A stretch of 33,100 nt of DNA from assembly GCA_008632985.1 (NCBI GenBank), contig QPGO01000231.1:28013-61112 (forward strand), written 5' to 3'. The notes beneath the pieces are model-generated. The model ran no database searches and was not told the DNA's origin. It worked only from the letters and a program-made list of their open reading frames with translations. How positions within the stretch are numbered: the stretch's first letter is position 1; each line of letters starts with the position of its first letter. Shown piece by piece: positions 1-21,195 of the stretch. The position numbers were made by a program, and so were the translations under genes. The stretch is from Psammoneis japonica. Taxonomy: Eukaryota.

Positions 1-526
1 TGTCATGGCTTGCTGGATGATTCATTGCAAGACTGGCTTTGCTGTCACTCAACCTCTCACTTTTTTTGTCTCACTCTTTGGAGTGAAACATTTGGTGGTT
101 TGTGTGATTTGTCATTTGGCATCAGCATGGTGCTTGTTGTTGTGCAAGTTTGCAGTTTGCATTCACACCTTTGGCAACCCACCCACAGCCATCACAAACT
201 GCCAAGGCAAGTGCATCAATGAGGAGCACAGGCAGCCCAGTGGGATGATCTTTCAGCAACATTCACTTGCTGGTTTAACAATCATTGAAGGCCACCAAAA
301 TGACAAAAAAGTGCAGTCCCACCATGCTGACCATGTTGGCAGCATCCACAATGCAGCAGTGCAAGTTTTCTCCCTTGTGCACAACTGCTGCTCTTTGTGA
401 TTGTCTGTGGGGGTCACATGATGTGTCATTGTTGTGCCATTGTCCAGAGCAGAAATCCAGCATGAGCACAGAAAAAAGGCAAAAAGCACTTGAGTGGATT
501 GACCCAAGCATCAAGCAAAATGACAG

Positions 527-1860
527 ATGGATTCCAACAATGTGAATCAGTGTGGCAACAAACAAAAAAGGCACAGTTTGGCGTTGGTTTGGCAGAAGTC
601 TCTTGGCCTCAACAATCCATGCCTGCCCATGTTGGTGCTTGAGAGTGAAGCAGATCATCTGACAACTTGTCACAAAGAAATGAAGCAGCAGATGGTGGCC
701 AATTTGTGTGTCATGGCTGACACCACACAGCACATGGCACCACAAGAACAGTCTGTTGTGGATGGTGCAGCGCTCACAAGAGGCAGAATGCTGATGACAC
801 ACCAGGCAACAGGATGGCATGCAATGAGGCAACAGTGGATTTCAAAGGTGACTTTGAAGATGAGGGCCACATTGTGGATGACTCACCAACTGATCAGTCA
901 ACAGACTTTGAGTCATGCACTCAGGATGTTGTTGAATGTTCTGACAACATGGAGGAGGAGACCAAAGGGGCAAGTTTTGAGAAGCTGCACTTGTGGAATT
1001 TCCCAACAGCAAGCTCAACAACCCAACCAACTGACACCAAGACACCTTCCCAACAAGTTTTAGCTCATTCACCATCAAAATGTGTCAATGCTGGGAATGG
1101 TGTGCTTGCTGCTGCTCAACTCCTCCACTGCCATCAACAGTGTGAAGGAGGCAACACTGAACAAAAAGCTGCTGAAAACTGTGGGCAGGGACACTGTGAA
1201 GCATTTGTCAAAAAGAGTTTCAGTTGACAAAGCAAGAGCAATGGCCCAAGCCAAAGTGGAAAACCCAGCCATTGAGCCAACTGGATTGTGTGTGTGTTGA
1301 CAGCAAGAAATGTGGACTTGGGCCACGAAGAAGTCCTGGGGCCAGCAGCTTGATTCGCACATGTTGATGCAAAGAATCGGGTGGGATGAGAGGCGCCAAT
1401 GAAACAAGGTCAAACAACAAGTCTAGAAGACATGTCTCACAAAATGAGACAAACCATTGTGGCACAGAAACACAGATTTGTTGGTCTAGAGACAAGTCTT
1501 GTTGGCCCTGAAAGCACTGGTCATTCCACTCATTTGTGTCAAGACTGTTCTGCAGGGAGCCCATGACAAAAGCTTTGATGCTGCAACAATGTTCCAATGT
1601 GACATTTGACAGTTGCGATTGAAACCAAAATTGAACAAAAATGGATTGTGCCACGTGTCATGTTTGACAACACCAAATCAGCATTTTTCAACAAATGAAA
1701 ATGGCTTGGCACAGCACACTGCTTTTGAAGGGTGCCACCAGCGGCCCACACAAACTTTGGATGATCCACTTGTGCCTGTGCTGTAACATCATCAGGCAGT
1801 CCACACTGGAAGTGTGGGTTTGCCGGTGTTGCAGGGCAAAGGCACTGACAACACTTTAAA
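527..1860 (+). pseudogene. Unidentified decayed coding sequence inside the hypermutated block
   Basis: Consecutive overlapping + frames (527.., 814.., 1082..) read as protein-like, including an acidic tract (DFKGDFEDEGHIVDDSP...DNMEEE), interrupted by TGA codons and frame changes. No family recognised. Confidence 0.3.
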
Positions 1861-2384
1861 AAACAGGTCTGTGCTTTTTTGTCATGGTTGAAATCACACT
1901 CATTGCACCATTGATGTCATGGCAAAACAAATGAAGACAGTGAATTGAAGAAGCATCCCAAATGCAGCCCTCACTGAAAGATCCAGCACGTGGAGCCAAA
2001 GTTCATGTCGCCAGTGCCGCCAAAAGCACCGAGATAAAAAATGAAAAGCAATCTTGTCTCCAATGCTCATTTTTTGTCCCCATGCATCTCATTCGTCAAA
2101 TTGACATGTCTTTCAGATTCTGCTCAATTTTTCTTGGAAACACCCAAAATTTCCAGCTAGAAGGAAATTTGACATGCAGCGGTGGTGACCTCAGAGGGCA
2201 ACAAAAGCCACCAAGGCTTGTGGAGAAGCTTTTGAAAAATGAAATTGTGGGCCAACATGTGAATCTGTCATGGGAGACACAAGCAGTGGCAAGAGCTTGC
2301 TCCTTTCATCAACCACTGAGATTAAACTGCCTGGCTCTGCATCCAAAACAGCCACTGCACACTTGACACCAAAGAAGAGCAGAG

Positions 2385-4975
2385 TCAAAATGTGTGTGTG
2401 GTGTGTGTGGGGGGGGGGGGGGGGCTGGAGAGGACAAAGCTGAAGTTGAGACTGAGGATTTGAGAGGCCCAGAGTTGGGGGGTTGCAGTGTGATGGGAAG
2501 AGCCAAAGCAGTCTGGTGAAAGTTGTTTCCAGGCCTCATTGGAGTGGGCAAGGAGGTTGGAGGGTGCAAGAAGTGAGTTGGTGAAGGCGGAGAAGGATGC
2601 TTGGGAATCGGACAGGGAGGATGGGCTTGACCAGGGCAGTTTGGGAGGAAGGGTTGGGATGGAGGAGGAGGCAGTGGTGGAGGTGCCAAAGAAGAAGACA
2701 TGGAAATGGCACCCAATTCCTCCAAGGTGGTTGAAGGTGAAAGGGAGGGGGAAGAGTCTAGCTTGGTTGATGGCATCAATGATGTTGGAGCCATGAGCAG
2801 ATGATGCAAAACTGCCAAGGAGCTTGTCCCGTGCACTGCTGAGGTGAGCCTTGCTTGACAGGTTTTCAGGGATGGGCAAACCAGGTGCAGGAGGTGGGGG
2901 AGCTGGTGGTGCGGTGATGTTGATGGCCAAGAATTGATGGGTGGATGGGGCATTTGGTGGTGTGGAGCGGGGGTGAGTTGAGTGCCGATGTTGGCAGGGT
3001 GTTTGAGGGGGTGGTCATCTGAGATGCCGGCAGGGTTGAGGCATGCTTGTTGGCGAGAGAGGCACAGACCGCAGAGTGGCCCCAGCATTTTGGTGACGGC
3101 GCAGACAGTGTCTCGGATGTGATTTGACAGATGGCCTTTGTGCATTTTAGAGCAGGCAAAGGTGTGATTGCCACATGGGTCTGGGTGGACGTGGCCACAT
3201 GGGCAGTCATGTTGGAGGAGGTTAGAGGAGATGATTGGAAACAGAGCTTCCGCAGAGAAGAAGCATGAACAAGTGCGGTGGGAGCCGTTGGAGGCATGAG
3301 CTTGGGAGAGAGAATGAAGGCACAGGCTTGCCAGTGGAAATGGCAAGGATGGAAGGGCTGGCTGCACAGAAGGATTGGCAAGGATCAGAGGGAGAGTGCT
3401 GTGCTTGTGATGACACAGATGAAAGCGTTGTGAAAGACCCCAGAGGTTTTGGTGTTTGACAGTGTGTGTCAGGGAGGTGAGGGAATGGGAGTCAAACTGA
3501 AGGAGGGTGGGAGCACAGTGGCGGAAGATGCAGCAGAGGGAAAGGGTGGAGTGTGGGTTGGACCATGAGCCAAGAGCAGTGGAGTGGCTTGAGGGAAGGT
3601 GTAAGATGGCACCGCTGCTGAGTGGGATGCTGTGTTTTGTGTGCCGCACAGATCTGATGAGGGAGGTCACAAGAGCTGGGACGGCAATGGCAGAGATGTT
3701 GTGACAGCTGGTGCTGCCTGAGGAGACAGGTGAGCTGGTGATGAGTTTGGCAGCAGAAGGGAATGGATTGGTGTGTTTGGTTGGGTGGGCAAGAAAATGC
3801 AGGGAGTGGCCAATGATTTTGTCAGCAAAGGGAGATGTCCATTGAAAGGGGAGTGGGAGGGTGTTGGATTGCATCAGGTTGCAGCATGCATCAGCTGCCA
3901 GAAGGTGGGTGATGGAAGGGATGGAGCATTTGTGGAAGAGTGTGCTTTGTGTCTGTTTGTCGGTTGGGTGGGTGGCAAGGCGGCGAAGGTCAGTGGCAAA
4001 GGAGGTGACCTTGTCATGGAGAAAATTGAAGGCAAAGGTGGGTGAGCCGATGGGTTGGCCGAGAAAGCAGACGCCGGTGGTGATTTCAGGTTTGATGTGG
4101 GGGTTGTTGTCGCGGGGGTTGAGGAAGGCAAGGGCTTCAGAAAGAGCTGCAGCATTGGCGGGTGGGAGGCGGTTGTTGGGAGAAGTGCCGGTGATGGATG
4201 CAAGGTTTTTTGTCTTGGAGGCATTGAGCTTGATGCCAAATTGGGGGCCGCAGGTGGAGATTTGCTCAAGGAACCAAGGAAGCTGAGAAAAAGGAAAGGA
4301 AAATGTGGGTGTTGCAGACACATGAGGAAGTGGCAGATTTGGAGCAAGGAGAAAGTCAGTGATGCAGCTCATCGTTAACAGGGTTGAATGCGTGGACCAG
4401 AACAAGGCAGGAAAAGACTGAGCTGAGGGGGCAGCCTTGAGCAAATCCTTGGGTTGAGAAAAGGAGGACCATTGCAGGTGATGGTAATGACACCAGCAAG
4501 TGTTGGGATCTTGTCAGAGTGAGTCAAAGAAAGGCAGTGAAGTGTGGCATTCATCGGAGTTTGCAAGGGTGTCACGGCAAGTGTCACGGGAGCATTCATC
4601 GAAACAGTTGGATGGGTCAAGGAAGAGGAGAGCTTTTGTTGGTGCAGAGTCCGGTTGAAAGAAGCATTTGATGTTGGTGCAAGCAGCATTCACAAGGTGG
4701 TTGAGGCCACCTTTGATGCCAACTCCGAATTGGCCAGAGAGCAGGAGGTTGGAGGCAAAAGTGGTGGCAAGGAGGAACATGACAAGGGTGCCAATGATTC
4801 TTTGAAGGGCCATGCCAACACCAATTGGCCAGAGTTTAGAAAGGTTGGATGAATCCTTGTACAGGGCAAGGAAGCAGTTGGATGAAAAAGCAGGTTTTTT
4901 TTTGATGTGGGGATGTGCAGGTTGGTTGGATTGGAGGATGGAGGGAGGGACAACAGAAAATCTTGGAGTTCAGAG
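2385..4975 (-). mobile_element. 5'-truncated, decayed non-LTR retrotransposon with RT and C-terminal restriction-like endonuclease (CRE-like RLE clade)
   Basis: Minus-strand motifs in order, across frameshifts: LALYKD..SKLWPIGVGMALQR (=LRPIxVG), QFGVGIKGG, LDPSNCF..CSR (=LDxxNxFN..SR), GFAQGCPLS, MSCITD (decayed YxDD), GPQFGIKLNASKT, GVCFLGQPIG, zinc knuckle CPCG...DPCGNHTFAC...H, HIRD, HPANI (=RPADI), AINIT (=AIDIT), PFTFNHLGGIG. End coordinates are approximate. Confidence 0.88.
2391..2424. repeat. (TG)n microsatellite plus G homopolymer at the 3' edge of the retrotransposon
   Basis: tgtgtgtgtggtgtgtgt followed by a run of about 16 G. Confidence 0.85.
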
Positions 4976-7509
4976 CTTGCAATGCTTGCAAATTTGGCTG
5001 ATGTCTTTGGGGTTGTCGCAGCTCGCATCTGCACTGCACAAAATGCAACAGTGAAATTCCGTTGGTTTCCTGCCACAATTTCCTCTGTTTTGAAATGCAT
5101 GGAAGGGACATTTTGAAGATGTCTAACAGCTTGCAGGGCTTGGAATTGATCCAAAGCAGGATGGCATCAACTCATTGCTTGGCACACCATTTTCACATGG
5201 CAGCCAAGTCACGTTGGAAAAAGACAGAATGTTGAGTTTTGGTGACCCTCAAAACAGCCCTTCCATGACTTTGTGAAGCTATGACATGTCTTTGCTTGCC
5301 TGGTGGAGAATGTGCATGATGTCTCCATTTGTCCCAGCAACAATGCCTTGCAAATGCAAGGATGTGAGTGTTGCAGTCTGAGTCTGCACAACACAAACAA
5401 GCAGTTTGCAAAAGAAGAGTGCAAAACTTTTCCAGCACACATGCATTGGATGCATGCATTGTTCAAGCAGAAGAAACAACACACACACAGTTGTGTGTTG
5501 TTGCAAATGTCAATCTTGTGTGACAATCGTGGATGCCTGTGAATGGCAGATTGATTGCACAGAACTGATCAGAAGTCTGAAATTTCAAATGCAATCAACA
5601 GATGATGTTGACACACAAGGCATCAATGTCAGTTGCATCTGGACAATCTGTTGTCATGATCACATTCTCCAAAAGGCCTTTGCTCTGTGGGAGCAGCACA
5701 AACACTTTGGGCCATTGAGAACTTGTTCAGAGAAACCCAAACTCACAGAGCAAATTTCAGTCTCACAACTTCCACTTTTTGTGATTTGTTCCACTTTTGT
5801 TTGCACTTGTTCTTCAAGTGCAGCGCACATCACTGTCCTGTTCCCAGCATTTTTGGTTCTGCTTGACTTTTTCCAAAGAAGACGGCCACAGAATTTGTTG
5901 TCACATCTTTGTGGTGCAACACTCTGAAGCTTGCTTTCTGCAATTTCCATTTCAGCATCACTTCTTTCATCTCTTCAGCTTTGCCACCACTGCACATGCA
6001 GCAACAACACCTTTTCCAGTGCTTCTTAAAATCATGTGGGTGGGAGACTCTCCATCCACAAAGCACCATGGATTTGTGGTCTCCAAAATGACATCCACAG
6101 GAGGGCAAGAAATGCAAGCACAAAGCTCATGACAAAAAAATGTGGCAACCTCTGATCCAGGCTTGGCTTGAAGCTCACAGCTCTGTGGCAGATGAGCTGC
6201 ATGCTTCAAAGGAGAAAGGGACAACAAGGATTGTGAGATGAGAGATGAAATGTTGCACATGCATGCCAGTGTGCCTGCAGCCAATGAACTCAAACAAACA
6301 AAAGTCAGTTCAAGGACACTTGCACTCCAAATGTCTTTGGCAGGCACCAGGGCAAGGAGATCCAGGCCTGGAGTGTTTTCCCATTCTCCAGGGCAACAAA
6401 GCATGGTTGCCATCATGTGTGTGAACAAACCAGCAAGCACTTGAACAGACCAACTGCACCAGAAAGTTTTGAGGCTCACAATCCATGAGAGGCTCTTGCA
6501 CATTGACTTGCCTGCACTGCCACAAGAAAAAAAAAGAATGGCACCATTGGAGTGGAGTCATGCCCAATTTTTGTGGCATGTCCATGGCTTGAATGTGAGC
6601 TGATTGTGGCTGCATTGGCTCCAGATGATGCTCTGACCATTGCAGGAACTGGACAAATGCTGCAAAACTCATTTTCTTCTTCTCTTCAGGCACCCTGTTC
6701 TTTGTTTTCAGTCTGTGTTCATTTTGACCTTCATTGTCTGATTTTCGGTGCTTCAATTTGTTGGGATTGGTGATTGTGATGGCTCCAGGGTGCAGGTGGC
6801 TGAGGTGCAGTGCGCTGCTGCACACTTTTGGGAGAATTTTTGGAGCTTGGGCTTCAACAAGATGTCACAGTTTGAAGTTTTTTGTGTGCCCATTTTTGAT
6901 GGCTGAGGACCAACAAGGCAAGCTTGCAGTGACATGAAGTTGTCAGCCCTGGCACCTGTGCAAAAGATTTGGGACTCACTGAGGTTGTGTTGTGCTTCAC
7001 AACAGCAGAAAATTCCAGTCAATGCAATGACAGTGCACCTGACTGCACCCACTGGGCATTTGGTCTTTGTCCATGTGCAATCCATGCTGTGCATTGGGCA
7101 AAGCCAATTTAACAAAGAGTGGCACCAAAATGACACTTGACAAACAAAGCAAGGATGTCAACATGAAAAAGCCACAGACTGCCTTGCATTTTGTTGGACA
7201 AGCACGTTGTCATTCTGTTCAAGGTGGGCACACTCCTAAAAAGGCATTGTGTTTCTCTCTGGATGGAGCATCAACATTGTTGCCCCTTGTGTCATTTTTT
7301 GCATGGTTGCTTTGTTTCACAGCATCCATGCTTGACCAAGACAGACAAAAAACTCAGGCACTCTTTTGTTTGTTTGGCAGGTGTCAGCATAAATGAACAA
7401 GCTGGTGGCTTCACCATCACAAAAACAAAAGAGCTCCATCTTGTGGCAGCCCAACACACTCTTGTTTTATTCGGGGCAGGATCCTCCATGAGTTGACAAG
7501 CCTGGCATT

Positions 7510-8340
7510 CACATTGACGCACCAAACAACATGCCAAGAGTGCCAACACAAATGCAACACAGAACCGTGTGTGCCACAATGAGCAACAAACCATTTGTGG
7601 CAAAGGCACCCATGTTGTCAGACAGATGAGATCATTTGCAATGATTGTGGTGTCTCAGCAGTCTCACATCAACTTGACTCACTCACATGACAGCAAGCAA
7701 CTTGCCATCAAAAAACAGTGCAGATGCCCAAAGAATTGCCAACGTTGTTGTTGGCATGATTTTGTGAATGCTTGCATTGATTCAAAAGAGAGTGCAGGGC
7801 ATGCAGCAGTGCCATTGTGCTGTGATGAAGAAATCAGACTGCACAACCCAATGGGGCACAGAGAGATGGTGCAGAGGACAGGAAAAGGAAGCCATCGTCA
7901 GCGCCGTTTGCCCTCGGGGTGTTTCCCAGCTCAAATGCCTCTGCACATGAGTGGTGAAGGCAATCTTGTCAAAGAAAACAAGTGAGAAAGTGAAACAAAA
8001 GCACTGCATGATTGGATTGCAACAGAGAGCGAAAACGGGCATCGAGCCGTGTGGTGTGTCAGCGCAAAAATCTGTTTTTTTTTTTCCATCTTGCGGGGTT
8101 GTCAGCCGATTGCCTTCCAACAAGCAATGCATGTTCATTCCACATGACAGCAAAGACCAGTGGACAGCGTTGGCGTTGTTAAAAGGATTGCATCTGGTCT
8201 AAAAAGCCGCTCCGATTCATTCTCATGGTGTGTGGTGTTTTGAGTTTCGAGGTGTGATACGCAAACGTGACTGATGAGTCCCGTATACGCTCATAAAATC
8301 GCGCGGTCTGAGCTCGTCTCGCGCGTCTCAGTCGTTACCG
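7510..8340 (+). repeat. Diverged ~0.85-kb segmental duplicate, copy A (hypermutated); paralogue at ~18255-19010
   Basis: Colinear matching blocks, e.g. acattgacg (7511/18255); tgcttgcattgattcaaaagagagtgca vs tgcttgcttgatccaaaagacagtgta; ttctcatggtg; acgtgactga(a)tgagtcccg; ctcagtc(g/c)ttaccg. Confidence 0.85.
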
Positions 8341-10043
8341 TAAAGTGTACGTAGGACTTAGTAATAATTTTGAAAGTACCAAGATCTCACGAATGTTCTA
8401 CATACGAAGTGATAGTATCGATTATACAAAGACACACAAAAATGATAGTGTTTGAGAAAATTAGCAACGGTCGGTCACGACACAAACAAAATCTCTCGAA
8501 AGCTTGCTCTTCGTTCGCTTCACAACTCGTTGTCTCGCACGATGTGTTGTTGTTCGCCAAGCAACGATTGCCGCGATCGCCCAGGATGGCTCGCCCTTCT
8601 TGCGGATAATAGAGAGCTAGCTCTTGTTTGGTGTTCCACAACTAGTCATGCTTGTTGACGTGTTGTCTCTAGGTGGCGTAGGTGTTGCCAGTTAAGTCCA
8701 GAGGTCGGGGCAAATCGAATGCGTCTCTCCGGCCTTGAGTCCATGTCACTCTCGTGTCTTTGAGCGCAGGAAGTTGCCTGTTCGCTTGACCCGTCAGGTC
8801 ACGGCTGTTGAAATAGACAGCAGCGTTCGTCTGTGAAGCAGCAAAAGCTCGCCAAGCAGATCATGCCGTTGACGGAACGCGGGTTTGGGGTTCCGTCGTA
8901 TCAGTGACATGATACGGTAAGTCTTCACTCGTAGGGAGTGTTGATTTAGAACGCGGTTGACTCGCAAGTTCTCTTGTTGTTGCCGTAGTACGTCCCCCCT
9001 TTTTCTTTTTTTTGGATGGTAATCCACCCGGAAAATAGGAGAAAGCTTGAGCGCCATCTCTTGGTGGTGCTCTTGAGGCAATATACCCTACGCAACCGAT
9101 TCAATTGCGACTTTTGAGAATGGTGTGCTTCAATTGCTTGAAACACCCCTTGAACCTTTACAATAGAAGTAGAAATACTAAAAGTATGATGTAGCAATCT
9201 TTCTTGCATGTAATTTATTCCGTACGTGTGTCAATGGACTACGATGACGGTCGTAGCGCTTGAGATGTCGTTGCATATCTTGATTTCATCGTTTTTGTGT
9301 TTGTACCATGCTGCTCTCTTTTTTTAGATGGGTTCCACGATGGGGTATTTGTTACGGTATGCCCCAACACGATATGTGTACTGGACTGTTTCTGCCAGCG
9401 AGTTTTGCTGTGGTACTTCTCAAAACGCGGCAAGTTGCGATACGATGAAGAACGGAGTCTATGTTGTGAACAATGATAAATCGAGTGATGCTGACATTAT
9501 TTGTCATTGTAAGCTACAGTACTAATTGTTGTAGGTGTAGACTACAATCCGGTGCCGACTACTCGCATGTTTCTGCTTGCTACGGCGGCAGCCTGCAATG
9601 TAGCAAGACCGGGAATGATGTGGAAGGAGTTACCAGACGACATTCCTCGCCACGACTATTTCCCCCGATATGGTCCTCTGAGTATGCTCCTGTTGACGCG
9701 GAATTCGGTTCGAGCATAACGAACGAAGTTGATTTCCGCACCTATGTTTTCTTTCTTGGACGTGCGTGACTAGTCGTCGGAATGCCAGGGCAAATCTACG
9801 GGGAAGCGAGCTGGAAGAAAGAAAAGGCCGCTCGTGTCGTCGGCTGGCAACAAAGAATACGGTAATAAGCCCCAGGTACGGTCTGCTTGGGCATAGCCCG
9901 AGAAAACAGCTAGTGAAAAGTAAAGAATACTGTAGGTAGCAGCCTATATGTCTTGTGGGAGCTCACACTACTTTGTCGACATGACAGTACTCTCTATAGT
10001 CAGCATTAGGCATGTCCTGCACCAACTTCTTGTGGAACGATAA

Positions 10044-13000
10044 TTAAGTTTCTTCTGAGTATCCCAGTGAGTGAGCGTGTCTGGGCTCTATTATCTCCTC
10101 GTCGATGCTTTCTATTTCTATTTTTCTGTCACCCAGCATCAAAACAAGACCCTTTAGCTGGGAAACATCCTGTCCGTAGCGCCTAAGTCTACCACAACCT
10201 TGACGGCGAGGAGTATTGTACAGGTCCACTGGGGCAAGAGCGCTCGCCGCCCCGCTCCCCCTTTAAAGACAGAATTGCATCAACCCCGGAATGGTTCTCT
10301 ATTGCGTACGATAGGGTGGTAGTCAGAGAGCGTGTCCAACTCAATGCCTTCTCTCTTGCTTTTGCTGAAAGAGCGACCACATACATTTTGCAGCGCCAAT
10401 GCCATCAAAGAATTGCTCTGAGAACGACACGTGACACGGGAAAGATTCTATGACCACAGCAGTGGACATTCTTTGAGAGTTGAATCTCCAACTGACGCCT
10501 CGAGCGCTGTTCATTGTGATTACCCACGGTTTCCCCAAAAGTTGTTGCCACATGTTCGTGGAAGTATCAAAATAGTCTGCTAGAACGGATGTATTGACAT
10601 GACACTCAAAGGTTACTCAAAGGTAACTTGGTGTGTGGATCTAGCCTATGAACAACGCCGCTCCTGACCTGAGCACCGGCCACAAAGTTCCTAGCTTTTG
10701 TTCTGAACAGGGCTTCATCCATACCTTGAAGATCATTGATGAAGGTTATCGTTGTTTCTGGCATGGTCAAACTTAGCGAAGCCGTAGTCTTTTGGGAACC
10801 GGGCGATGTCACCGAAGACAACACCGCCGCAGACTGCTGATTATGCAATACCTTCCTGTCGCTCGAAGCTTCGATACCACCATTAGATTCAAGTTGTAGC
10901 GCCAGTCGTTCAATTCGTGATGCCTCTTGCTCGCTGATGTGGACAACTTGCTCGTCTTCGGCTTCCGACCCGAGAGATTGTGAAAACCCGGAACAAATGG
11001 CTTTCGCGAGAGCTGGTTCTGCATTGAAAACACCATATTATATATCGGCGACAAGATGACGAGTTTGATGTCAACGTCAATAAAACTCCTTGCTCTTGAC
11101 TTCGTCGAGACTACCAAATTCACCTTTGCGGGTTCCACAATTTGCAGCGGACTCTCTAGAAACCTTCCATGTGCACTGTATATCTCCATTCCTTCGCCAT
11201 GCATTTCTACATCAGTGCTGAAAAGTCTGCCGCCTTCGATTTTAGACGCACGAGACATCTTGGCTTTCCATGCCCCCTGAAGGGCGATCGCCTCCATTAC
11301 CCGCCCCGTACAACCTGGAGTTGATAGAACCATAGATGCTCTTCTCACTGCATTGGACGAGTATCCAACATCAACCAGAACGACGCTGCAACTTCCGGTG
11401 GATATCGAAGTAGAAGTCGATGAAACATCATCTTTGGATGGACGAAGGACGTTTCCGCAGCCTCCCCATGCTCGTTGAAGTGAACCTCAATTTCTTTCTC
11501 GTCGTGCGAAGAGTTTTCTGACCCTGTGAGCTTGCCCTCTTCCGTAAGACTGCCACTGCTTGCAAGTGATACGAAGCCCAGCACGTCAGCCATTGCATCC
11601 GGAATGAACACAAGGCGTAGTGACCCAATGCGCAAAAAAGTTCGCTTGATTTGTTTCCTTTCTTCACAAATTCAAATCGAAATACATCATTTTCAACATC
11701 CTCTTCGCGATTGTCCACCCGGGATACAAGGGATCGGAAGTCCCTATCCACCGCCTTCAACCTTCGATCGTCGCAATCAAGGCATAGCAATTTCATGTCC
11801 ACGAGCTTTGTTTCTTCGTCCGGTATCACAGAAAATGAAATGGACGTCTTCGCGGCAGCTCATCGCACAATGCGAGCGTCGATATCATCACCACAAAGCT
11901 CGAGCGACATGACGTCCACCAAGAAATATCTATTACAACAACGCCAGCATGAGAAATGCCCTGCCTGAGATTTCCTTCGCGCAAGGTGCGACGCCTACTT
12001 CAGTTGATGCGCTAGACGCATCGCCAATTTCATAGAACGTTCCTCATTTTCATCGACGAGGCTTGTGCGGTCGCCACCACCACGCAGAAATGAATCACTT
12101 AGGCCAATGTTCAATTCAAGCGTATTCATCATCTGTTCACACTGCGCCTTCGACATTAGAAATGAAGCTTGGGAAACAAACACATCGTCTGTTGTTGTGC
12201 TGTCCCTTCGCCAATTGGTGGAAGTTCCACGTCGATAGAAATTGCGGTCGGCGTTTCTACCATCGCCCTTCCAGCGTTATCTTGCAGCGACAGCTCTGAA
12301 AGCCAGAGACTTGCTGTTGAAAGAGCACCCGAATCAGGAGGAGAATGGTACCGTACGTTGAGGTCTCCAGCGTGGAGGGTAAGGTGTTCTGGAGAGTAAG
12401 CGGCTTGCGGTATAATAAGGTCGGCGCCGATGGCTCTTATGGCAGAAATTATCTCCCCCCCCCCCCCACTTACAGAACTAGCAATCTCAATCGCAGCATC
12501 TTTTACCGATGAAGCAGCTTCCGCAAAAAGCGCGCTCAAAATGACTTCCGTAATATATTCAACCAGCGTCAATACCTGCGAATGTATAGACGGGTGATAG
12601 GTTGATCTTCGCGCAAGCGTCGCAGGTATCGACACCCTCGTCCTGAAGTGATAATGATAGGATTGCTTGACGCCCTATGCTGTATTGAACAGAGAGCAAA
12701 CTACTCGTAGTTGACTGGTGCGGGGCGAGTCCAAGAAGAGTTTTGTACGATTGCCGCGTTTTCCATTTAGCACTTCGAACATCCCCAAGCTCAAGCGAGG
12801 CCTTCGTATTGCTCTGCTCGTCGTTCTCTGAGGAATGAAAACTCACTTTTGTGTCAGACATTATATTGTCATCTCAAAAAGCGGTAGATCTTCTGTGGCA
12901 GAATTCAAGGATACTCGAAGTGCCTCATCTCGGCCTTCAAAACAAAGAGCCGAGCTTTCGCCTTGGATATCGAAAACTCATCAGACTCGAAGCTTTTCAT

Positions 13001-15630
13001 GAGAGATTTCTCGTTGAGGCAAAGGTAATGGTGACTCAATCGCAGACAGCCGCGGCGACACCTCGGCGAGCGACAGGCGCTTCTGTGGCAGAGAGAATTT
13101 CGACCGTACCGCTCTCACTGCCTGGATTGCTTTTGGATTCCACTGAACATATAAACTCGAAAATGTAGCATCGACAAAATTAAGCGCCACGGTTTCATTC
13201 TCTTTCCGAAATTGTGTAATGTCAACAAATTCAGTACAGCCAGAGAAACTGTCATCAAAGGCACCAAGCTTCTCTAATTCCGCAAGAACATTGCACTCGT
13301 CGTTTTCCGCAAATGACGCTGCTGGTTTTGGGAGGTTTGAATGAGCCAACAGTCGCTGCTCCCATGGAAAGTCACTTGATAAACGGTCCAAAGTCCAAAA
13401 CCATCCCGTTTTCAGGCGGCAAGAAGCACCTCGATCGCCCGTCGAAGACGCAGACGATGACACGGAAACCAGGTGCGCCTCTAAACCGCCCCCCGTCATA
13501 AGGGACGGCACATATTAATAGCAGGTGCAACACGATAGCGAAGTGCAGAACAATAAGGTCATAGAGACCACCTTCAAGTCCTGTGGTTTTCACTCATGGT
13601 TGTTGCTTTCGAAGTGTCTTGAAACCCAGCAGACGACCTCTTCAAGATAGAGCTCGTCACTGATGTTGATCTCGCATCGCGGCCTCCGTCATGTTCGACC
13701 TCATCGAGAATGGACATACCGCCCGCATCGACGACAGTTTTAACACCTCTCTTTGCACTTACATCTTCTATAACATCTCGCCAAGTACTGAGCACAGATA
13801 CGGTCCTTTTGACCTGAGTTGGAGATATACGAAGCGAATCCGTAGGTAGAACGCCACACGTACAGGTACGGGGCGCTCGTCATTGGGAGCTATTTCTAAC
13901 CCCATTTTGAGATTGAGTGAGAGTGGCTCAATTACAGCATCGGCCTGCTCTTCTTAAGGCAACTTGAGTTTTGTCATAGGGTCATCCCAGTTCAACTGAC
14001 CCGTTTTCCCTGTAACAAACATTAGATTAGACACCACAAGTTCGCTATAATCCTTGAGAGGATCCGGTTTCGTAGTGCTTCGCTTCGCTTTACTTGAGAA
14101 CCATTCCATAACACTTTGCGGCGGCTCAATCTTGCCGTATTTTAAGCTGAAGTGCCCCAAATCGAAGACAAGCACATCGGTAGTCGGATCAACACAACTT
14201 TGTGGAAGGATGATGATGGGGGCGAAGACGTCGAAATCAACCATCCAGATAGTATTCTTCTTCGTTTTACTTTTCCAGGCATCTGCAAATGCAGTAGATA
14301 GCTGGTCCGACACTGCAGCACTTGCTGCCCTCGCGGCTGCGGCGGTTTCGTCAACAATGTCCACCGCCCCAGCCTCCATAGTATGCGACCCGGCGTCATA
14401 AAGAGATCAACCGAACCACTCAAAGACTTTTCTAAGAGTGGGTTCTGCCGAAAGTGTTGCGACGCGGATACTGATACGGTATTGGAAAGCGAGAAGAAGG
14501 CCTGTACATCCTTCAGAAATACCGATGAGGCCACCAACGAAAAGCTGCCATGCGCAGAATCAATTGTTGAATGCACCAGTGGTTGAAGCCCCCTCCTTTT
14601 GTGACGAGTACCGCAAGCTACTTCGCATGACAGTAGTAGGGAACAAGCTCAAGGTCTCATCCCACGTGTGATCAAGTCGATTTTTGAATGCACCCAGGGT
14701 AAACTTGATGTCGTCAAGCTTTAAATTTGTTGAGACTTCCGATTCAGAGGTTTGCTCGAGACTAAATGCTTCGAGCTCTTTCATTTCTTCTACTGTCAAG
14801 AATATTGGAGGATCTTCCTCGTCCAGTGACACATCTTCGCCCTTTGAAGCCCCCCAAAACGACGGCAGATACGACTTTTTGGCGCCCTATTCTGAAACCT
14901 TTTTCGTCGACTCGTGTTTTTTCTTTTCTCGTTCGACTTGTGCATCAGTATAATGTTCCGCCGTGTCATTGCCTTCCAAAGAGACAACCCGAACTTGTTC
15001 TGTGGTTATCACGGTCTCCACTTCTTGTATCGACAAAAGGCTTCAACCAAGGGCAAGTCTCATGATGAGCATGGCGCTTGTAATGCGATAGGGCCTCTAT
15101 ACTTGTTGCGTTTTTGAAAAGCTGTGTAAAACTCGACCCAAGAGCGCCTGCCAATGCACCGCACCGCATATCTCCACCATTCTTTGGCTGTTTCTTCGCT
15201 AACCCTATTTAAGGGACGATACTCTGGAAAAAGAGGTATGGCAAAGCTCTGAGAATGCCTTATGCCACCGCAATCTTGTTGCTCAACTCCAGCTGATTCC
15301 GCGACAGGAACATTGAGAGCTGTGAGAGCTCAGAAGACTGCAAATATCGGAAATCGATACACTCGAGTTGATCGAATCAGAACCATCCGATTGTCGCCCT
15401 TCCGGGACAGACTTTGGGATTGAAAAACTGTAGGTCTCATCATCAAGACATGCTCAAAGACATTGAATGCGCAGCACTTTGCAAAGGAACGACTTGACGA
15501 CATTCTTGCTCGTTATCGTGCGGTCTACAAAACTTCTGTTTCCATCCTTGTCGGTGGTAACGAGAGAAAGTGAAGACAAAACGACGCCAGCCGAGCATCC
15601 TGCACCTTTGACACATGCAGACTCTCCAAA
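10044..15630 (-). pseudogene. VPS13: VPS13-family lipid transfer protein, truncated at both ends, with frameshifts and stops
   Basis: Chorein-N-adjacent SAGVVLSSLSLVTTDKDG...KVLRIQCL; IWMVDFDVFAPIIILPQ...VLVFDLGHF; SLYVQWNPKAIQA; DYFD...MWQQLLGKPW. In-frame TAA at ~13954 and single-base losses in short homopolymers near 14400 and 13870. Confidence 0.85.
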
Positions 15631-16312
15631 TAGCGATAGTGTACGGTAATAGTCCATGTAAAAGGCGTCGAGTGAACGTAAGGAGGATAAAAAGGATCCG
15701 CAGAAGGATGTGTTGTCGACGATGTCATTTTTGCTTGCAACTTCGTTGTGAAAGTTGCAGTGACGTTCTTATGCTCTTTTAGTTGCTGCTTTTCCGCTGA
15801 CAACAGCAATATCACTCGCTTTACAGCAGATGAAACAAAGATGTGATTCAAACACAGTGCGATTGTCAAAAGATGGAACTCAAGTAAAGTATGTACAGCA
15901 TGTTCAGGAGCGCGCTTTATGAGCAACGGGCTTGGATTCGACAGGGCGACGTAGAAATCTACGAAAGTTCTGTACTAGCGAAACCAAAATTGGCTTTTTT
16001 CTCGACGATTTTCATTCGATCTATATTCATATACTTTAACGGTTAAGATCCTACCGTTAAGATTACTTATGAGAGTGAAACCATTGTCTTTTATCTGTTG
16101 GAAAAAGCTCGTAAAATTTTCAATCCGATCGAAGCTTTCGTCGATTGGAAACACGCGTAAAATGCATGAGTGGTGGTCTTCATTTTGTCAATGACAAAAT
16201 CAAAAAAATTCAAAACGGAAAAATCGAGCTCGTGTGCGACCTCAGTCCCGCCTCACGCGAGGCAACCGTCGCTCGCAATGGTGATGGCAAACAACAACCG
16301 TAGCCGTACTGT

Positions 16313-17958
16313 ATGGACGAATTCAAGAGACGCTTCAAAGAATACACTCCTGAACAACATCGAGCAGTGGCTGACAGGTATCTGGCCACAGCCGACAAAC
16401 ATCGAGCCGCTGTTGGACAAGCAAAAACCTCTGCTGATCTGAAAAGAGCTCAGAGCAAAACTAATTATCACAACCGCCTTTCACGGATGCACAAGGAAGA
16501 AGCCAAGAGGAAGGCAACCCTGCAGCGACGACGGACTTTGCGTCACGTGAAGAGCGAACAAGAAGCCGCTATGCCCACGAACAATCCCACTTCAGCTTCT
16601 AAAGCCAATGTAAATGCGAGTGGCGGGGATGCCTTCAGCACTCCTTTTGTTGCCCGTAGCCGCAGCACAAACAATGATATACCGAGCACCGGAGCATCGC
16701 CCGCAGGAGTGCGAATGTCTTCTACGCCCATAAATGCTGCCGGAGTGGAACTTCTAATGAAGTCTCCTGTTGGCCAGAAATCCATGGCGCGTGGTTACAC
16801 TGATCCGAGATTGCAGTTCCAAGCCATGTTGCTCGAAAACTTGAATAAGCACGGGGCTCTCTTGGACAAAAAGGCCGAGAAACAGGCGGAACAGGAAGAG
16901 ACTGCCAATCAACGAATCAACGTTGTCCTGGCAGAGCAAAAATCATCTGTGAATTGGCTGGGCAACCGAGTGCCTTTCTTGGAGTAAAGCGAAAGATGAG
17001 TAACGTCGAATGCGACGACAATGAAAATCAAGATCCGAACTCGGCTTCTCCTTTCTTGGGATCTCATTCACAAGTCGCCTCTCCCCATGTGTTGGGAAAC
17101 CCAAGTGCAAAGCGTCGACGATGCGTTAAGGCTTTGAGGCCCATGCTGGTGGACTCTCCGCCGAAATCCGAAATGGAGCCTACTGTGAAGAAGGAGCTTT
17201 TCCCAGGATCAAACAATTCTTTCACTGGCACGTCATCAGGATTTACAGCACCTTCACCTCCCACTGGAACCCCTTCTGCATCGACTTCGTTTGGAGCTGC
17301 TACCTTTGCTTTTCCTTCTTCTGCTACAAATTCTACTGGAGGAGCTACGACTGTTCCTGGAGCTCCTGCTTTCCATGTAGACATAACGAATCGCGGCACC
17401 CCGAACAGCAAACGGATTCGCAAGCCAAAAGCATCTGCTTCACCAGGAGCATTTCCATTCAGCATGCATCAAATCCATGCTCCTCTCACCATGTCAGCAC
17501 CTCAAGTCCCTGGCCACCAAGTTCCTGCCGCCCAAGTTGCTGGCGGCGGCCAGTCTAATGTGTACGATAACGGCAACGTATTATTTGCTCAAGTTCCCGC
17601 TGGAGGACCGACAGATCAAGTCAGGAAACCAAGTGTTGAAGAAGTGCGTATGCGGGATTCGCAAACCTTTGAAACCCAGTATTCTGACCTCGTTCAAAAT
17701 GCACCAAAGTCGGTAGAAGCGGACATTATTGTGAAGGAGATTGATGAATGTAAACGAGAGCTTGTAGCACTCGTAAACCGAAGCGACTCGCTCAGCAAAG
17801 ATGAATTTCAAGAGTTGTACGGTATTCTTCAGTCGAATCGGATGGACGCAATCAACTTCGATTCCTTCGTTGGCACTGTGGAGGACATGACAAACCTCAA
17901 GATGATCCGCAAGATTCTAAACCACTATGGCGATTATGTAGAGGACCACTACTGGTAA
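16313..17958 (+). CDS. Orphan low-complexity (S/P/A/T-rich) protein, split into two overlapping ORFs (16313-16987, 16954-17958) by a probable frameshift, or two adjacent genes
   Basis: Two long same-strand ORFs (224 and 334 aa) overlap by 34 nt with no obvious GT-AG intron at the junction. The first has a helical basic N-terminus and the second a helical acidic C-terminus. Confidence 0.55.
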
Positions 17959-18210
17959 GGAGAGGCAACCAAATCTTTCATCAATGGGAATTTTCGGTGC
18001 ACCTGCCATGGGAAGTATAAAACTTCTTAGTCGGCACGCCTGCCCTGAGAAGTTTGAAACTTCTTAGTAGGCACGCATAAAGCACACGCGGTGCTTCCAA
18101 CCGCTACTTATGAATGTAAACTAAAAATGTTGTTAGTCTAGATTGCGTTTGAAGAATTCTGGTTCTACGGTACATTTCGTCTTAAAAGCGTCCTTCGCGC
18201 TGCTCGGGGG
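17895..18210 (+). repeat. Direct repeat copy 1 (last ~20 codons plus 3' flank of the orphan gene), containing two tandem 37-nt hairpin units
   Basis: Aligns with 20530-20820 (about 19 substitutions and 3 small indels by eye) and more loosely with 20975-21150. Confidence 0.92.
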
Positions 18211-18254
18211 AGTCATCCCGATTTTTACCGTGAGAAGTCGAGACGACAGATTGG

Positions 18255-19010
18255 ACATTGACGGCTAAAAACGCAGTGTAGAACCGTAATAAAGCGATAA
18301 GTACCTAAAGCTTTCAATAATGAGTAAGAAAAATGCAAAATAGCAAGAAAGTGTCGTTAGTTGCTTGCGTTCGAGGTGAATATCATCATTTTTCGCGGCA
18401 GCAAGTTGTGAGCTCCACAAATCATACACTTACCGTTGTCTACCATCAAATAATGCACACCATAATCCATATTATCAATGAAATCGACCATCCGTTGCTT
18501 GCTTGATCCAAAAGACAGTGTATGACACGCAACAGCCCCATTTCGATTGATGCAGAAATATCAGCCGCAGACAAATGGTTCAAATGTCGACATGAAACTA
18601 AGAGCCGGTGTTCCTCGTTAGGGATTTTAACATGGTCGAAATGCTCCCTATATAAGTGTATGAAACGAGCGTATCAAATAAAAAGAACGAGTCAGTGACA
18701 CGAAAGCGCAATGCGATTGTATCGCGACAGCACACGAAAAAGAGCAGCGGATGGTGATGCAATTACAAAATCCATTTTTTGACCTTTCGATTGAGCAATT
18801 ACCTTCAAACAATCGATGAAAATAGTTTCTATATGATGGTAGAAACTATTCTAAAGCCCTGCTGTTGTTGAAAAGGTTTGGCAATAGCATGAAATGCCGT
18901 TCCGATTCTCATGGTGAGTGGCGTTCGGAGGGTGTGCGCATACGTGACTGAATGAGTCCCGCCTAACTTCATGCAGCCGCGCGCTCGCTCCGCTCGCCTC
19001 AGTCCTTACC
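18255..19010 (+). repeat. Segmental duplicate copy B (unmutated); upstream/promoter region of the 5-phosphatase gene
   Basis: Colinear with 7510-8340, retains CG and TA dinucleotides, and ends about 30 nt before the ATG at 19039. Confidence 0.85.
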
Positions 19011-19038
19011 GGCGTAGCTGCAGTGACACGCATCGACA

Positions 19039-20413
19039 ATGACAACAACAACAATGGATGAAGTGCTACCCCTGATTAATTCAATTTTCGTGGGTAGCTT
19101 CAATATGAACAACGAGGACTTATCATACAACGATGCTGCACGTTGGTTGCAAGAGGCGAAACATGCCGATCTAGTCGTGCTCGCCATGCAGGAATGCGGT
19201 TCATGCCGCTTGGACGGCTCCATGCCGTTGCCAGAGAATCAACAACAGCAAGAAAGTTGGTGTCGAAAACCTCAGCTTGATCGAAGCGATACTGTTCTCC
19301 ACAGCATACAAGATGCATTGAATGACGGCTACAAAATTGTTGCTGACGTTGCCATGGGCGAAAGCGCGACTGGGAGAAAAATTGCTATTGACGGGGAGCC
19401 CGATACGGAGTGGTATGGATATATACGAATGATTGTTCTGGCAAGGACAGGTATGTGAGAAGACCGTTACTTTCGATTCCGGACGTGGTCTTCATCTCAT
19501 ATTTCGATAACTTCTTGTTCACAAATCCTTCTTTCTTTCATGAAGAACTCGCAGACAAACTATCTCCGCAATGCAGGACGCTGGTCTGTCCTGTTGGGTC
19601 CAAGTCGTCGGTTGATTCTCTTACATCTCAATCACCGGATTATCCTGTTGATGCGAGTCCTGATAAGGGTGCCGTTTGCGTAGCTTTAGGAAGCGACTTG
19701 TTGCTTGTGAATGTTCACCTCGCTGGTACAAACCAGTATAATGTGAACGAGGAGCACTTTGATGAAATCAGAAAGCACCAGTTAACGCTGATTCATGAAA
19801 TGTGTCAACCTTACGGGCATTGTATTGTTGCTGGGGACTTTAATTTTCGATGCGAAATCCATCCGAATGAAAAGAGTCGCGGCGGACTAGACTTTCAGGC
19901 TGTCCACGACATTGTCAAGTCAGCTGATTGTGAGGCTATTGGCAACTTGTATCGTAAACATGATCGACTTATTCAGCTCATCAATAGCAATGGCGATACT
20001 GTGATCCCGTTACTTTTGAAGGACACAAGTGATTCCTTTTGTTACGGATTCAAGGATAATGAGTACGTCATGCCTACTTTCACTTTTACACGGGATCTTA
20101 AGCGAGAAGAGAAGAGCGGCAAGAATTGCCGATCCTACTCAGATAAGCGTACGCCATCGTGGACAGATCGGGGTAGGTGGGCTCAGTTTCAAAGTTCCCC
20201 TTGTTGGTTTTCCGTGTCCGTAAGGTCTCACCAACCAGTCGCTCTCTTTCTTGTGCACGCCCTCAAACAGTTCTGTTCTCGAACTCGTTGCGGGACAAGC
20301 AGGGATTTTATATCATATCCGTCAAAACTCACCCCGACATTGTAGTAAGCGACCATATTCCGGTACATTGTCTATTCTCTCGCTCGAGAAGCACTTCAAA
20401 TCAGCTGGACTGA
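19039..20413 (+). CDS. Inositol polyphosphate 5-phosphatase family protein (IPPc/EEP fold); exons 19039-19450, 19555 (or 19546)-20172, 20271-20413
   Basis: Family motifs IFVGSFNMN, DLVVLAMQE, KGAV, NVHL, GDFNFR, HDRL, PTF, RTPSWTDR|VL, SDHIPV. Two phase-1 GT-AG introns (GTATGT at 19451; GTAGGT at 20173 to AAACAG at 20270) join the ORF pieces in frame. Confidence 0.92.
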
Positions 20414-20529: not shown

Positions 20530-21195
20530 CCTCGAGATGATCCGCAAGATTCTAAACCACTATGGTGATCATGTAGAGGACCACTGCTGGTAAGGAGAGG
20601 CAACCAAATATTTCGTCAATGTGAATTTTTGGTGCGCCTGCTATGAGAAGTATAAAACTTCTTAGTCGGCACGCCTGCCCTGAGAAGTTTGAAACTTCTT
20701 ACTCTAGGCACGCAGAAAGCACACGCGGTGCTTCCAATCGCCACTTATGAATGTAAACTAAAAATATTGTGGTCTAGATTGCGTTTTGAAGAATTCTGGT
20801 TCTACGATACATTTCTTCTTTTCGGCAAGCCCTCTTGCGGATATCATTGCTACGTTTGCCTTGAGAAGTTTAAAATTTCGTAGTCGGCACGCAGAAAGCA
20901 CACGCGGTGCGTTCTTCTCGCTTCGCGGGTGCCAAAAAAGTTCGGTGAGTCCTCTAGCGATGTCATTGCTACGGCTGCCTCCAGAAGTTTGAAACTTCTT
21001 AGTCGGCAAACAGATAAAGTACACACGGTGCTTAAACCCGCCACCTACGAATATAAATGAGAAATATTGCAGTCTAGATTGTGTTTGAAGAAGTCTAGTC
21101 CTAAGGCATGTCTCTTCTTAAAAGCGTCCTTCGAGCCGCGAGCGGGGGGCTTTAGTTGTTATGGGATAGCTGTCAAAAGTTCGCCGAGTCCTCTC
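20530..21195 (+). repeat. Direct repeat copy 2 with internal amplification: four 37-nt hairpin units and repeated flanking modules
   Basis: 20530-20820 matches 17895-18183. Hairpin units start at ~20638, 20675, 20856 and 20975. A ttcgg-x-agtcctct-like module recurs at ~20821, 20941 and 21180. Confidence 0.9.

Follow-up and report, generated by a model that had tools for sequence, protein, structure and literature searches.

Which process could empty a chromosomal block of its TA and CG dinucleotides, and what tells it where to act? The question is raised by the left end of a 33,100-nt stretch of contig QPGO01000231.1 (assembly GCA_008632985.1, positions 28,013 to 61,112 of the forward strand), the whole of which is called the window hereafter. 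A first-pass annotation, made from the letters of the window, had singled out a segment at 7510-8340 (copy A) and a paralogue further to the right (copy B), and had proposed that TA and CG of copy B were systematically mutated to CA or TG in copy A only, by a process targeted by position rather than by pairing. In this study we consider the entire region left of position 8200. We think it likely that positions 1-8199 are part of a discrete domain in which TpA was converted to CpA or TpG by a strand-symmetric process acting at the DNA level, most CpG having decayed as well, and that this process was targeted by location and is, as far as TA is concerned, of the kind described in Bigelowiella natans.

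Extent and composition of the domain

The window is eukaryotic, with a canonical GT-AG intron at 19451 and gene fragments of the VPS13_N, Exo_endo_phos2 and Adaptin_N families. Its left part is occupied by a single feature, which begins left of the window start and has its right end near 8200:

1-8199 (no strand): TA/CG-erased domain, defined by composition and mass balance, and present in contigs of the read set X1 at single-copy depth.

The density of TA is 3.0 per kb in this domain and 41.8 per kb in the rest of the window, that of CG is 10.4 versus 59.6 per kb, and CA and TG together reach 224.1 versus 141.6 per kb. When counted in 500-nt windows, each interval of 1-8000 contains 0-4 TA (observed/expected ratio, o/e, 0.00-0.12) and 0-13 CG (o/e 0.00-0.51), with CA and TG at 1.3-2.4 times expectation, while ordinary values are found from 8251 onward (TA o/e 0.19-1.05, CG o/e 0.69-1.47). 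Over more than 8 kb, TA is down to an o/e of 0.03 in every frame and on both strands.

The steps that disappeared are balanced by those that appeared. The density of pyrimidine-purine (YR) steps is unchanged overall, at 237.5 per kb in the domain and 242.9 per kb outside, and the loss of TA+CG matches the gain of CA+TG within each class of flanking bases (per kb, 22.6 lost and 21.2 gained for RNNY, 16.9 and 15.6 for YNNR, 24.2 and 22.8 for RNNR). With a constant YR total, and a loss equal to the gain class by class, the domain has just the appearance of normal DNA of this genome whose TA and CG were turned into CA or TG by transitions only. Furthermore, the 878 CA and 959 TG of the domain follow each other in random order (runs test, z=-0.97), so that the change is strand-symmetric and not arranged in patches.

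As for the origin of this DNA, 2424-4951 is a retrotransposon relic and 7760-8340 a copy of a dispersed repeat, while 1-2390 and 4951-7759 have no recognisable origin in a Pfam search of the 22 open reading frames (ORFs) of the domain, which returned no family apart from a chance-level HIPIP match (E=0.09). These last two stretches, in which no repeat is detectable in the window, are converted as fully as the relic. The domain also carries 33 ORFs of at least 90 aa, one of them of 711 aa, all spurious. Such long ORFs arise because TAA and TAG need a TA, which leaves TGA as the only stop codon that can occur. Gene finders will thus over-call in TA-erased blocks and ordinary similarity searches are defeated there, with mis-annotation as the result.

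The domain edge inside a dispersed repeat

The right end of the domain falls within copy A, and the following features are needed to describe it:

7471-7759 (+ strand): left part of the claimed copy A, collinear with copy B 18204-18486, with an alignment score of 72.5 where the null reaches 75.0 and 95.5.
7760-8199 (+ strand): hypermutated part of copy A, homologous to copy B 18487-18889.
8196-8258 (no strand): limit of TA conversion, within the segment homologous between A and B, located by alignment and by the positions of all TA and CG.
8200-8340 (+ strand): unmutated part of copy A, 81% identical to copy B 18890-19011, with TA kept at 2 of 3 sites and CG at 10 of 12.
8334-9338 (no strand): high-copy repeat flanking the domain, not hypermutated, identified by contig depth and composition.
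18487-19011 (+ strand): copy B, of normal TA and CG content, belonging to a multi-copy family and located shortly before the start (19039) of an Exo_endo_phos2-type gene.

The whole A/B alignment scores 473.5, to be compared with 60 shuffles (mean 153.4, standard deviation 14.8, maximum 194.5) and with other real segments (maximum 162.5). The significance of its parts was assessed with transition-tolerant Smith-Waterman scores against composition-matched real segments. The core, 7760-8199 versus 18487-18889, reaches 267 (null maxima 90.5 and 89.5) and the right part, 8200-8340 versus 18890-19011, reaches 123.5 (null maxima 48 and 52). The score of the left part, 7471-7759 versus 18204-18486, lies below both of its null maxima (n=98 and n=154, respectively), and homology is not demonstrated there. 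The homology that the first-pass annotation had claimed for the whole of 7510-8340 is therefore significant for 7760-8340 versus 18487-19011, and no better than chance for 7510-7759. All eight pairs of short strings quoted in support are present at the places given; six of them (at 7791, 7944, 7995, 8016, 8109 and 8138 of copy A) belong to the supported alignment, and two (at 7576 and 7612) to the non-significant left part. Plain blastn detects only 7769-7834/18496-18559 and 8109-8340/18798-19011 (67%). After recoding to purines and pyrimidines, 7927-8240 matches 18633-18926 at 79% with 93.7 bits (next best 54), and a match regained in this way is what transition-only damage predicts.

The tabulation by dinucleotide that had been suggested as a check shows a selective loss of TA and CG in the core. 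Over its 398 aligned columns, the 18 TA of copy B read in copy A as CA (7), TG (4) or another dinucleotide (7), and never as TA; the 19 CG read as TG (7), CA (7), CG (3) or another dinucleotide (2). The replacement of B's TA and CG by CA and TG in copy A, as first noticed, thus holds at 25 of 37 sites of the core, with 3 of 37 kept, whereas 12 of 15 are kept right of the edge (Fisher test, p=8e-7). Within the core, the other 14 dinucleotides are kept in 142 of 344 cases (p=2.6e-5 versus TA+CG), and single-transition products are found at 16 of 60 AT+GC sites versus the 25 of 37 of TA+CG (p=1.2e-4). The last TA of copy B that is converted in copy A lies at 8195-8196, the first shared CG that is kept at 8208, and 8258 is where a TA not in a YTAR context is first kept. 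Since homology between A and B runs past these markers to 8340, the edge cuts through a repeat copy.

Copy B had been presented as the unmutated copy of a pair, a description that does not stand: B belongs to a multi-copy family, and even outside the domain it shares only 81% identity with A. Contig depth summed over B amounts to 466-792, compared with some 115-125 for single-copy stretches, and a contig of X1 follows A as far as 8218 and then, after 28 other letters, B from 18939 onward, as a mosaic-like third copy would. A and B thus belong to a family of dispersed repeats and do not form a simple pair. Within the window no third copy of the family is found: in blastn searches, B and the right end of A retrieve only each other. 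Nor does tblastx detect a paralogous gene downstream of A.

Immediately to the right, the repeat at 8334-9338 has a summed contig depth of up to about 9000 (at 8814) versus about 120 for single-copy DNA, which corresponds to about 70 copies, and loose contig ends pile up at 8334. Its composition is normal (TA o/e 0.57-0.78, CG o/e 1.1-1.4), and it contains no Pfam family, nor were terminal inverted or direct repeats found. An unconverted repeat of about 70 copies next to converted stretches without repeats means that repetition is neither necessary nor sufficient and that position decides. The proposal of positional rather than pairing-based targeting finds support in this neighbour and in the edge inside the A/B homology; targeting by place, not by repetition, is supported by the arrangement of the sequence, while the chromatin domain that the first-pass annotation had named as the guide is a putative one.

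An exchange with an unmutated member of the family, through gene conversion or recombination, could nevertheless have produced the sharp edge, which would then mark no chromatin boundary; in that case the domain would be real but its edge in copy A would say nothing on where the process stops. Such an exchange fits a multi-copy family with a mosaic-like third copy, yet the modest identity of the right part of A to B implies that B was not the donor and that the event was not recent. Moreover, the unrelated sequence right of 8340 is also unconverted, which puts the domain edge at or before 8340 anyway. We regard this origin of the edge as unlikely.

The right end of the A/B family is conserved at 8262-8340 and 18940-19011, where CTGA(A)TGAGTCCCG is accompanied by a block, CTCAGTC.TTACCG, that precedes the start of the gene (19039) by 28 bases, and could be a promoter-like or small-RNA-like element. 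A small RNA or ribozyme at 8200-8340, a segment that contains CTGATGAG, was considered and rejected, as the window has no Rfam match at gathering thresholds and no tRNA. Short repeats that contain a hairpin and are 79-92% identical lie at 17895-18203, 20530-20820 and 20971-21139, on both sides of the Exo_endo_phos2-type gene (19039-20345); copy B starts directly after one of them, and they look like insertions of the MITE (miniature inverted-repeat transposable element) type.

Direction of change and rival origins

The direction of change announced by the first-pass annotation, from TA and CG to CA and TG, is right, although the A/B pair on which it had been based has no polarity. It follows from the mass balance and from an element inside the domain, which took the place of the third family copy or orthologue that had been called for as outgroup:

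2424-4951 (- strand): dead, 5'-truncated retrotransposon relic of the non-LTR (long terminal repeat) type, from the reverse-transcriptase (RT) domain to the C-terminus, identified by phmmer, RVT_1 in its homologues and tblastn.

A phmmer search with the translation of 3701-4900 (stop as X) gives 328 matches at E<=1e-3, the best at 1.1e-53. RVT_1 was found at E<=7.5e-5 in all 15 of the top homologues tested, in 11 of them above the cutoff of Pfam, and the relic itself, even when read through, matches no Pfam family, its homology having come to light solely in this exhaustive phmmer search. When 38 homologues of at least 800 aa were compared with the window by tblastn, they outlined one block, 2424-4951, and nothing upstream of 4951. 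Their matches start at residue about 130-430 (with the exception of P0012, from residue 1), which indicates that the relic is 5'-truncated. It contains one in-frame TGA, and the catalytic YxDD motif (consensus columns aYmDD) reads HVSA.

The relic was aligned with 31 homologues, which also served as leave-one-out controls. It keeps 98 of the 161 conserved columns. None of the seven conserved tyrosines is kept (they read C, C, H, X, F, F and N), compared with 118 of 226 in the controls. Three of the 11 conserved arginines are kept, and five of the eight changes are to W, Q, C or H, residues that account for 25% of the changes in the controls. Reverting a CA or TG to TA or CG restores the consensus residue in 19 of 95 cases, while transversions do so in 23 of 378 (p=1.4e-4); examples of such restoring reversions are TGC<TAC, CAT<TAT, TGG<CGG, CAA<CGA, ATG<ACG, TCA<TTA (four times) and CCA<CTA (twice). 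This codon test, taken alone, lends moderate support to the direction. With the relic as outgroup and the mass balance taken together, the sequence evidence settles that TA and CG are ancestral, CA and TG derived.

At the 3' end of the relic, a (TG)n tract is followed by a run of 18 G at 2390-2424 (a C-run and CA repeat on the sense strand), and reads are cut at 2385-2436. Over the block 2400-4800 the + strand is 40% G and 14% C, with a GC skew of up to 0.5 and twice as many TG as CA; this skew would be either the native C-rich coding strand of the element or a strand-biased part of the conversion. Low tyrosine content (<1%) also occurs in 16 of the 150 RT homologues listed, eight of which have none, with cysteine mostly raised. 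Among them are P0016, P0053, P0063, P0094, P0115, P0131 and P0144, P0053 being a protein of 320 aa with no tyrosine and 3.4% cysteine. The same TA-erasing signature is probably present in other public assemblies, which we take as a lead, not as a test.

Could the domain, as foreign or specialised DNA, have avoided TA and CG from the outset, for instance to escape a nuclease or a sensor, and never have been mutated in place? Avoidance of CpG and UpA exists in viruses, according to the abstracts of two reports (PMC3781069, PMC3829696), and the domain does hold mobile-element DNA. The relic, however, derives from a family with conserved tyrosines, arginines and YxDD; in it these are replaced by exact single-transition products, and it is catalytically dead. 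In addition, the family of copy A has another member with normal TA and CG, the purine/pyrimidine pattern and the flank classes equal those of normal DNA, and the depletion affects all frames and both strands to the same extreme. A native composition of this kind is very unlikely.

Repeat-induced point mutation (RIP) of ascomycete fungi resembles what is seen here in that mobile elements are inactivated by a burst of transitions, in the manner of a genome defence, with blocks of strongly skewed dinucleotide content as the result. RIP needs duplicated sequence and a sexual cycle. A RIP-like, homology-triggered mutation of duplicated DNA, with copy B escaping by chance, would agree with the repeat-derived DNA of the domain (the RT relic and the A/B family member) and with changes that are all transitions. 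The first-pass annotation had argued that RIP typically mutates both duplicates, a contrast that is overstated; what separates the two is the type of mutation. Fungal RIP is a change of C to T, mainly at CpA, that gives TpA and so raises TA (abstracts of PMC2621366 and PMC3318451), whereas the process here destroys TA and requires A:T>G:C changes. On this ground fungal RIP itself was ruled out, the domain having a TA o/e of 0.00-0.12. For any RIP-like trigger, the adjacent repeat of about 70 copies and the multi-copy family of B are untouched, the edge lies inside a homologous segment, and 1-2390 and 4951-7759 are converted equally with no detectable repeat in the window. Little room is left for this explanation, which we hold to be highly improbable.

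An artefact of sequencing or assembly, such as modified bases called wrongly or inosine in the DNA taken for G, has also to be considered. Modified bases can cause systematic miscalls, and the read sets come from one sample, possibly that of the assembly itself. X1 contigs nevertheless carry the domain at normal single-copy depth (123-128 versus 114-116 for normal single-copy DNA), and one of them bridges the edge from 7245 to 8390, differing at 4 of 1143 bases. If the misreading were strand-specific, TG alone or CA alone would be expected over stretches as long as a read, together with a halved depth, where the order observed is random; nor would an artefact end within about 60 bases. An artefact is accordingly a most improbable source of the domain. 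The run X2, from the same sample, gives almost no cover over 1-8004 and covers 8005-20000, which is evidence of neither silence nor absence; a further run, X3, yields nothing on the window. Among the 33 difference rows shown for the domain (of 578 in all) there are four adjacent CA>TG doubles, at 777/778, 807/808, 1397/1398 and 1431/1432, and two residual TA of the window (276/277 and 2323/2324) read as TG in X1 contigs. Such doubles are the trace expected when copies or alleles resolve the same ancestral TA or CG differently, and other copies or alleles of the domain seem to have been converted independently.

Finally, hyperediting of a retroelement RNA by an ADAR-type enzyme (adenosine to inosine), fixed by reverse transcription and insertion, would account for the retroelement relic and for the TA motif through the 5' U preference mentioned in the Discussion of the preprint bioRxiv 10.64898/2026.01.13.699255, but it is scarcely credible, given that it predicts A>G on one strand where TA>TG and TA>CA are here equally frequent and interleaved, that the block extends well past either end of the relic and stops within a repeat copy unrelated to it, and that C>T at CG is no ADAR product.

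Mechanism, known systems and significance

The explanation that we favour is a DNA-level, strand-symmetric process that would turn essentially every TpA of the domain into CpA or TpG by A:T>G:C transitions, while most CpG would decay to TpG or CpA. Copy A would then be an old copy of the dispersed family that straddles the right edge, with its left 440 bases converted, and with its right 140 bases, like copy B 10.7 kb away, not converted. Targeting would be by location, the target being a silenced or foreign block that also holds the dead retrotransposon. The chemistry may be the deamination of adenine in TpA on either strand.

The TA and CG that survive inform on how the two steps were lost. 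Only 25 TA remain in the domain, of which 17 are in a YTAR context (TTAA 7, TTAG 4, CTAG 4, CTAA 2) versus 166 of 1033 outside (chi-square test, p=3e-10), and one is in RTAY, versus 316 of 1033 outside. TA flanked in the YTAR manner may thus be a poor substrate. Surviving CG show no flank bias (p=0.95), and RCAR/YTGY outnumber RTGR/YCAY without reaching significance (p=0.78, or p=0.09 without the relic). The conversion of TA is all-or-none up to the domain edge. That of CG is graded, with an o/e of 0.00-0.29 in most of the domain, 0.07-0.51 across the relic and 0.58 in the last 450 bases, and it fades already from about 7890-8030. Moreover, the 25 TA have to be set against 1837 CA/TG steps, any of which a single transition would turn into TA; from so few TA among them we infer that the conversion of TA continues or has ceased only very recently. 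We read these patterns as two processes, a fast and context-selective conversion of TA and a slower decay of CpG in the same silenced block, the loss of CG being probably due to the decay of 5-methylcytosine.

Several points weigh against this account, in addition to the possible origin of the edge by recombination. The copies are old, the identity of A and B in the core being 63.1%, with 86 transitions and 61 transversions, and only 30 of these 86 transitions fall at the TA or CG sites of B, which can thus not be taken for an unmutated ancestor; the enrichment per site is modest, with an odds ratio of 2.8 for TA (p=0.009) and of 2.8 for CG (p=0.016). Identity at non-target sites is 65.7% inside the domain versus 78.4% outside, and the A/B contrast may partly reflect neutral decay as opposed to a conserved promoter-like end. 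In the codon test of the relic, de-conversions do not differ significantly from other transitions (19 of 95 versus 11 of 94, p=0.16). One pair of the difference rows shown is the opposite double change, CG>TA (2609/2610), and X1 is possibly the sample behind the assembly of the window, hence not independent support. Lastly, the loss of CG lies outside the precedent of B. natans, where, in the preprint text available, the spectrum is AT>GC only and CpG is unmentioned.

This precedent comes from mutation-accumulation lines of B. natans (Mettrop et al., bioRxiv 10.64898/2026.01.13.699255, available in part). In these lines two regions of integrated viral DNA, with a rate about 1000 times that of the background, received 231 of 302 nuclear mutations, and 230 of the 231 mutations of these hypermutable regions were A>G or T>C, all of them on TpA. 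Coding sequences depleted in TpA were enriched in reverse-transcriptase, endonuclease-RT and DDE domains, de novo hypermutation was active in only some lines, and a DNA adenine deaminase similar to ADAT2/TadA was proposed.

As far as the available text of the preprint allows a comparison, the two cases share TpA as the target with TpG and CpA as products on either strand, discrete blocks amid normal DNA (here 1-8199 depleted and 8258 onward normal), long-term TpA depletion with CpA/TpG enrichment (in clusters of at least 3 kb in B. natans), RT-type sequences among the affected DNA, and no copy-number trigger, the NCLDV (giant virus) region of B. natans being single-copy. They differ in that CpG is 83% depleted here, and in that conversion is essentially complete here while the NCLDV region of B. 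natans still has 3.3% TpA. The sparing of YTAR and an edge of at most 60 bases inside a repeat copy are seen here and not in that text. Judged by this comparison, the TA half of the pattern matches the hypermutation of B. natans on every feature tested, and the CG half does not.

Decay of CpG by deamination of 5-methylcytosine in methylated repeats is found in vertebrates, plants, and some fungi and protists. The CG half resembles it in the change of CG to TG or CA with an excess of CA/TG, in being strongest in silenced mobile-element DNA and in being graded; such decay cannot explain the loss of TA. The domain also has in common with APOBEC3 (C>U on cDNA) and ADAR (A>I on double-stranded RNA) an editing directed against foreign nucleic acid, and with ADAR a 5' U/T preference. 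The substrates of those enzymes are single-stranded cDNA or RNA, and the changes that they make are clustered on one strand, unlike the change observed here, which affects both strands without patches, in resident chromosomal DNA and up to a fixed border.

A tentative and rather doubtful extension is that one machinery erases both self-complementary YR steps, in a lineage other than Bigelowiella. Either a DNA deaminase with specificity for both A and C, or a factor that recognises steps with a 5-methyl-pyrimidine on each strand (T in TpA, 5-methylcytosine in CpG), could play this part; it would convert TpA and CpG to CpA and TpG in marked chromatin blocks, spare YTAR and stop within a few tens of bases at the border. 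If this were true, such editing would be a widespread genome defence of eukaryotes, not the curiosity of one species.

Elsewhere in the window, direct repeats of 94-122 nt, 82-83% identical, occupy 27532-28926 inside a long ORF (27677-29122), whose product would be repetitive internally and matches no Pfam family. In the protein libraries searched, no homologue is found for exon 1 of the gene at 19039, and the VPS13 fragment has no match among longer proteins. A 317-aa ORF has 21 protein matches at 38% identity or less, and the named ones include Bolidomonas and Triparma (Bolidophyceae, 33-38%). That neither exon 1 nor this ORF has a near-identical counterpart in those libraries speaks weakly against Bigelowiella, whose proteins would be expected there.

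Programmed A:T>G:C editing of chromosomal DNA is almost unreported, and the sole report that we found is the 2026 preprint on one alga. The domain described here is in our reading a new example of this recently described hypermutation, probably in a new lineage, and it adds the co-depletion of CpG, the sparing of YTAR and a border of at most 60 bases inside a repeat copy. It shows what such a process leaves at its end, with a dead retrotransposon from which the direction can be read. Both border and context rule offer handles for finding the enzyme and the guiding mark and, if the organism is not Bigelowiella, the mechanism would be common to distant eukaryotes.

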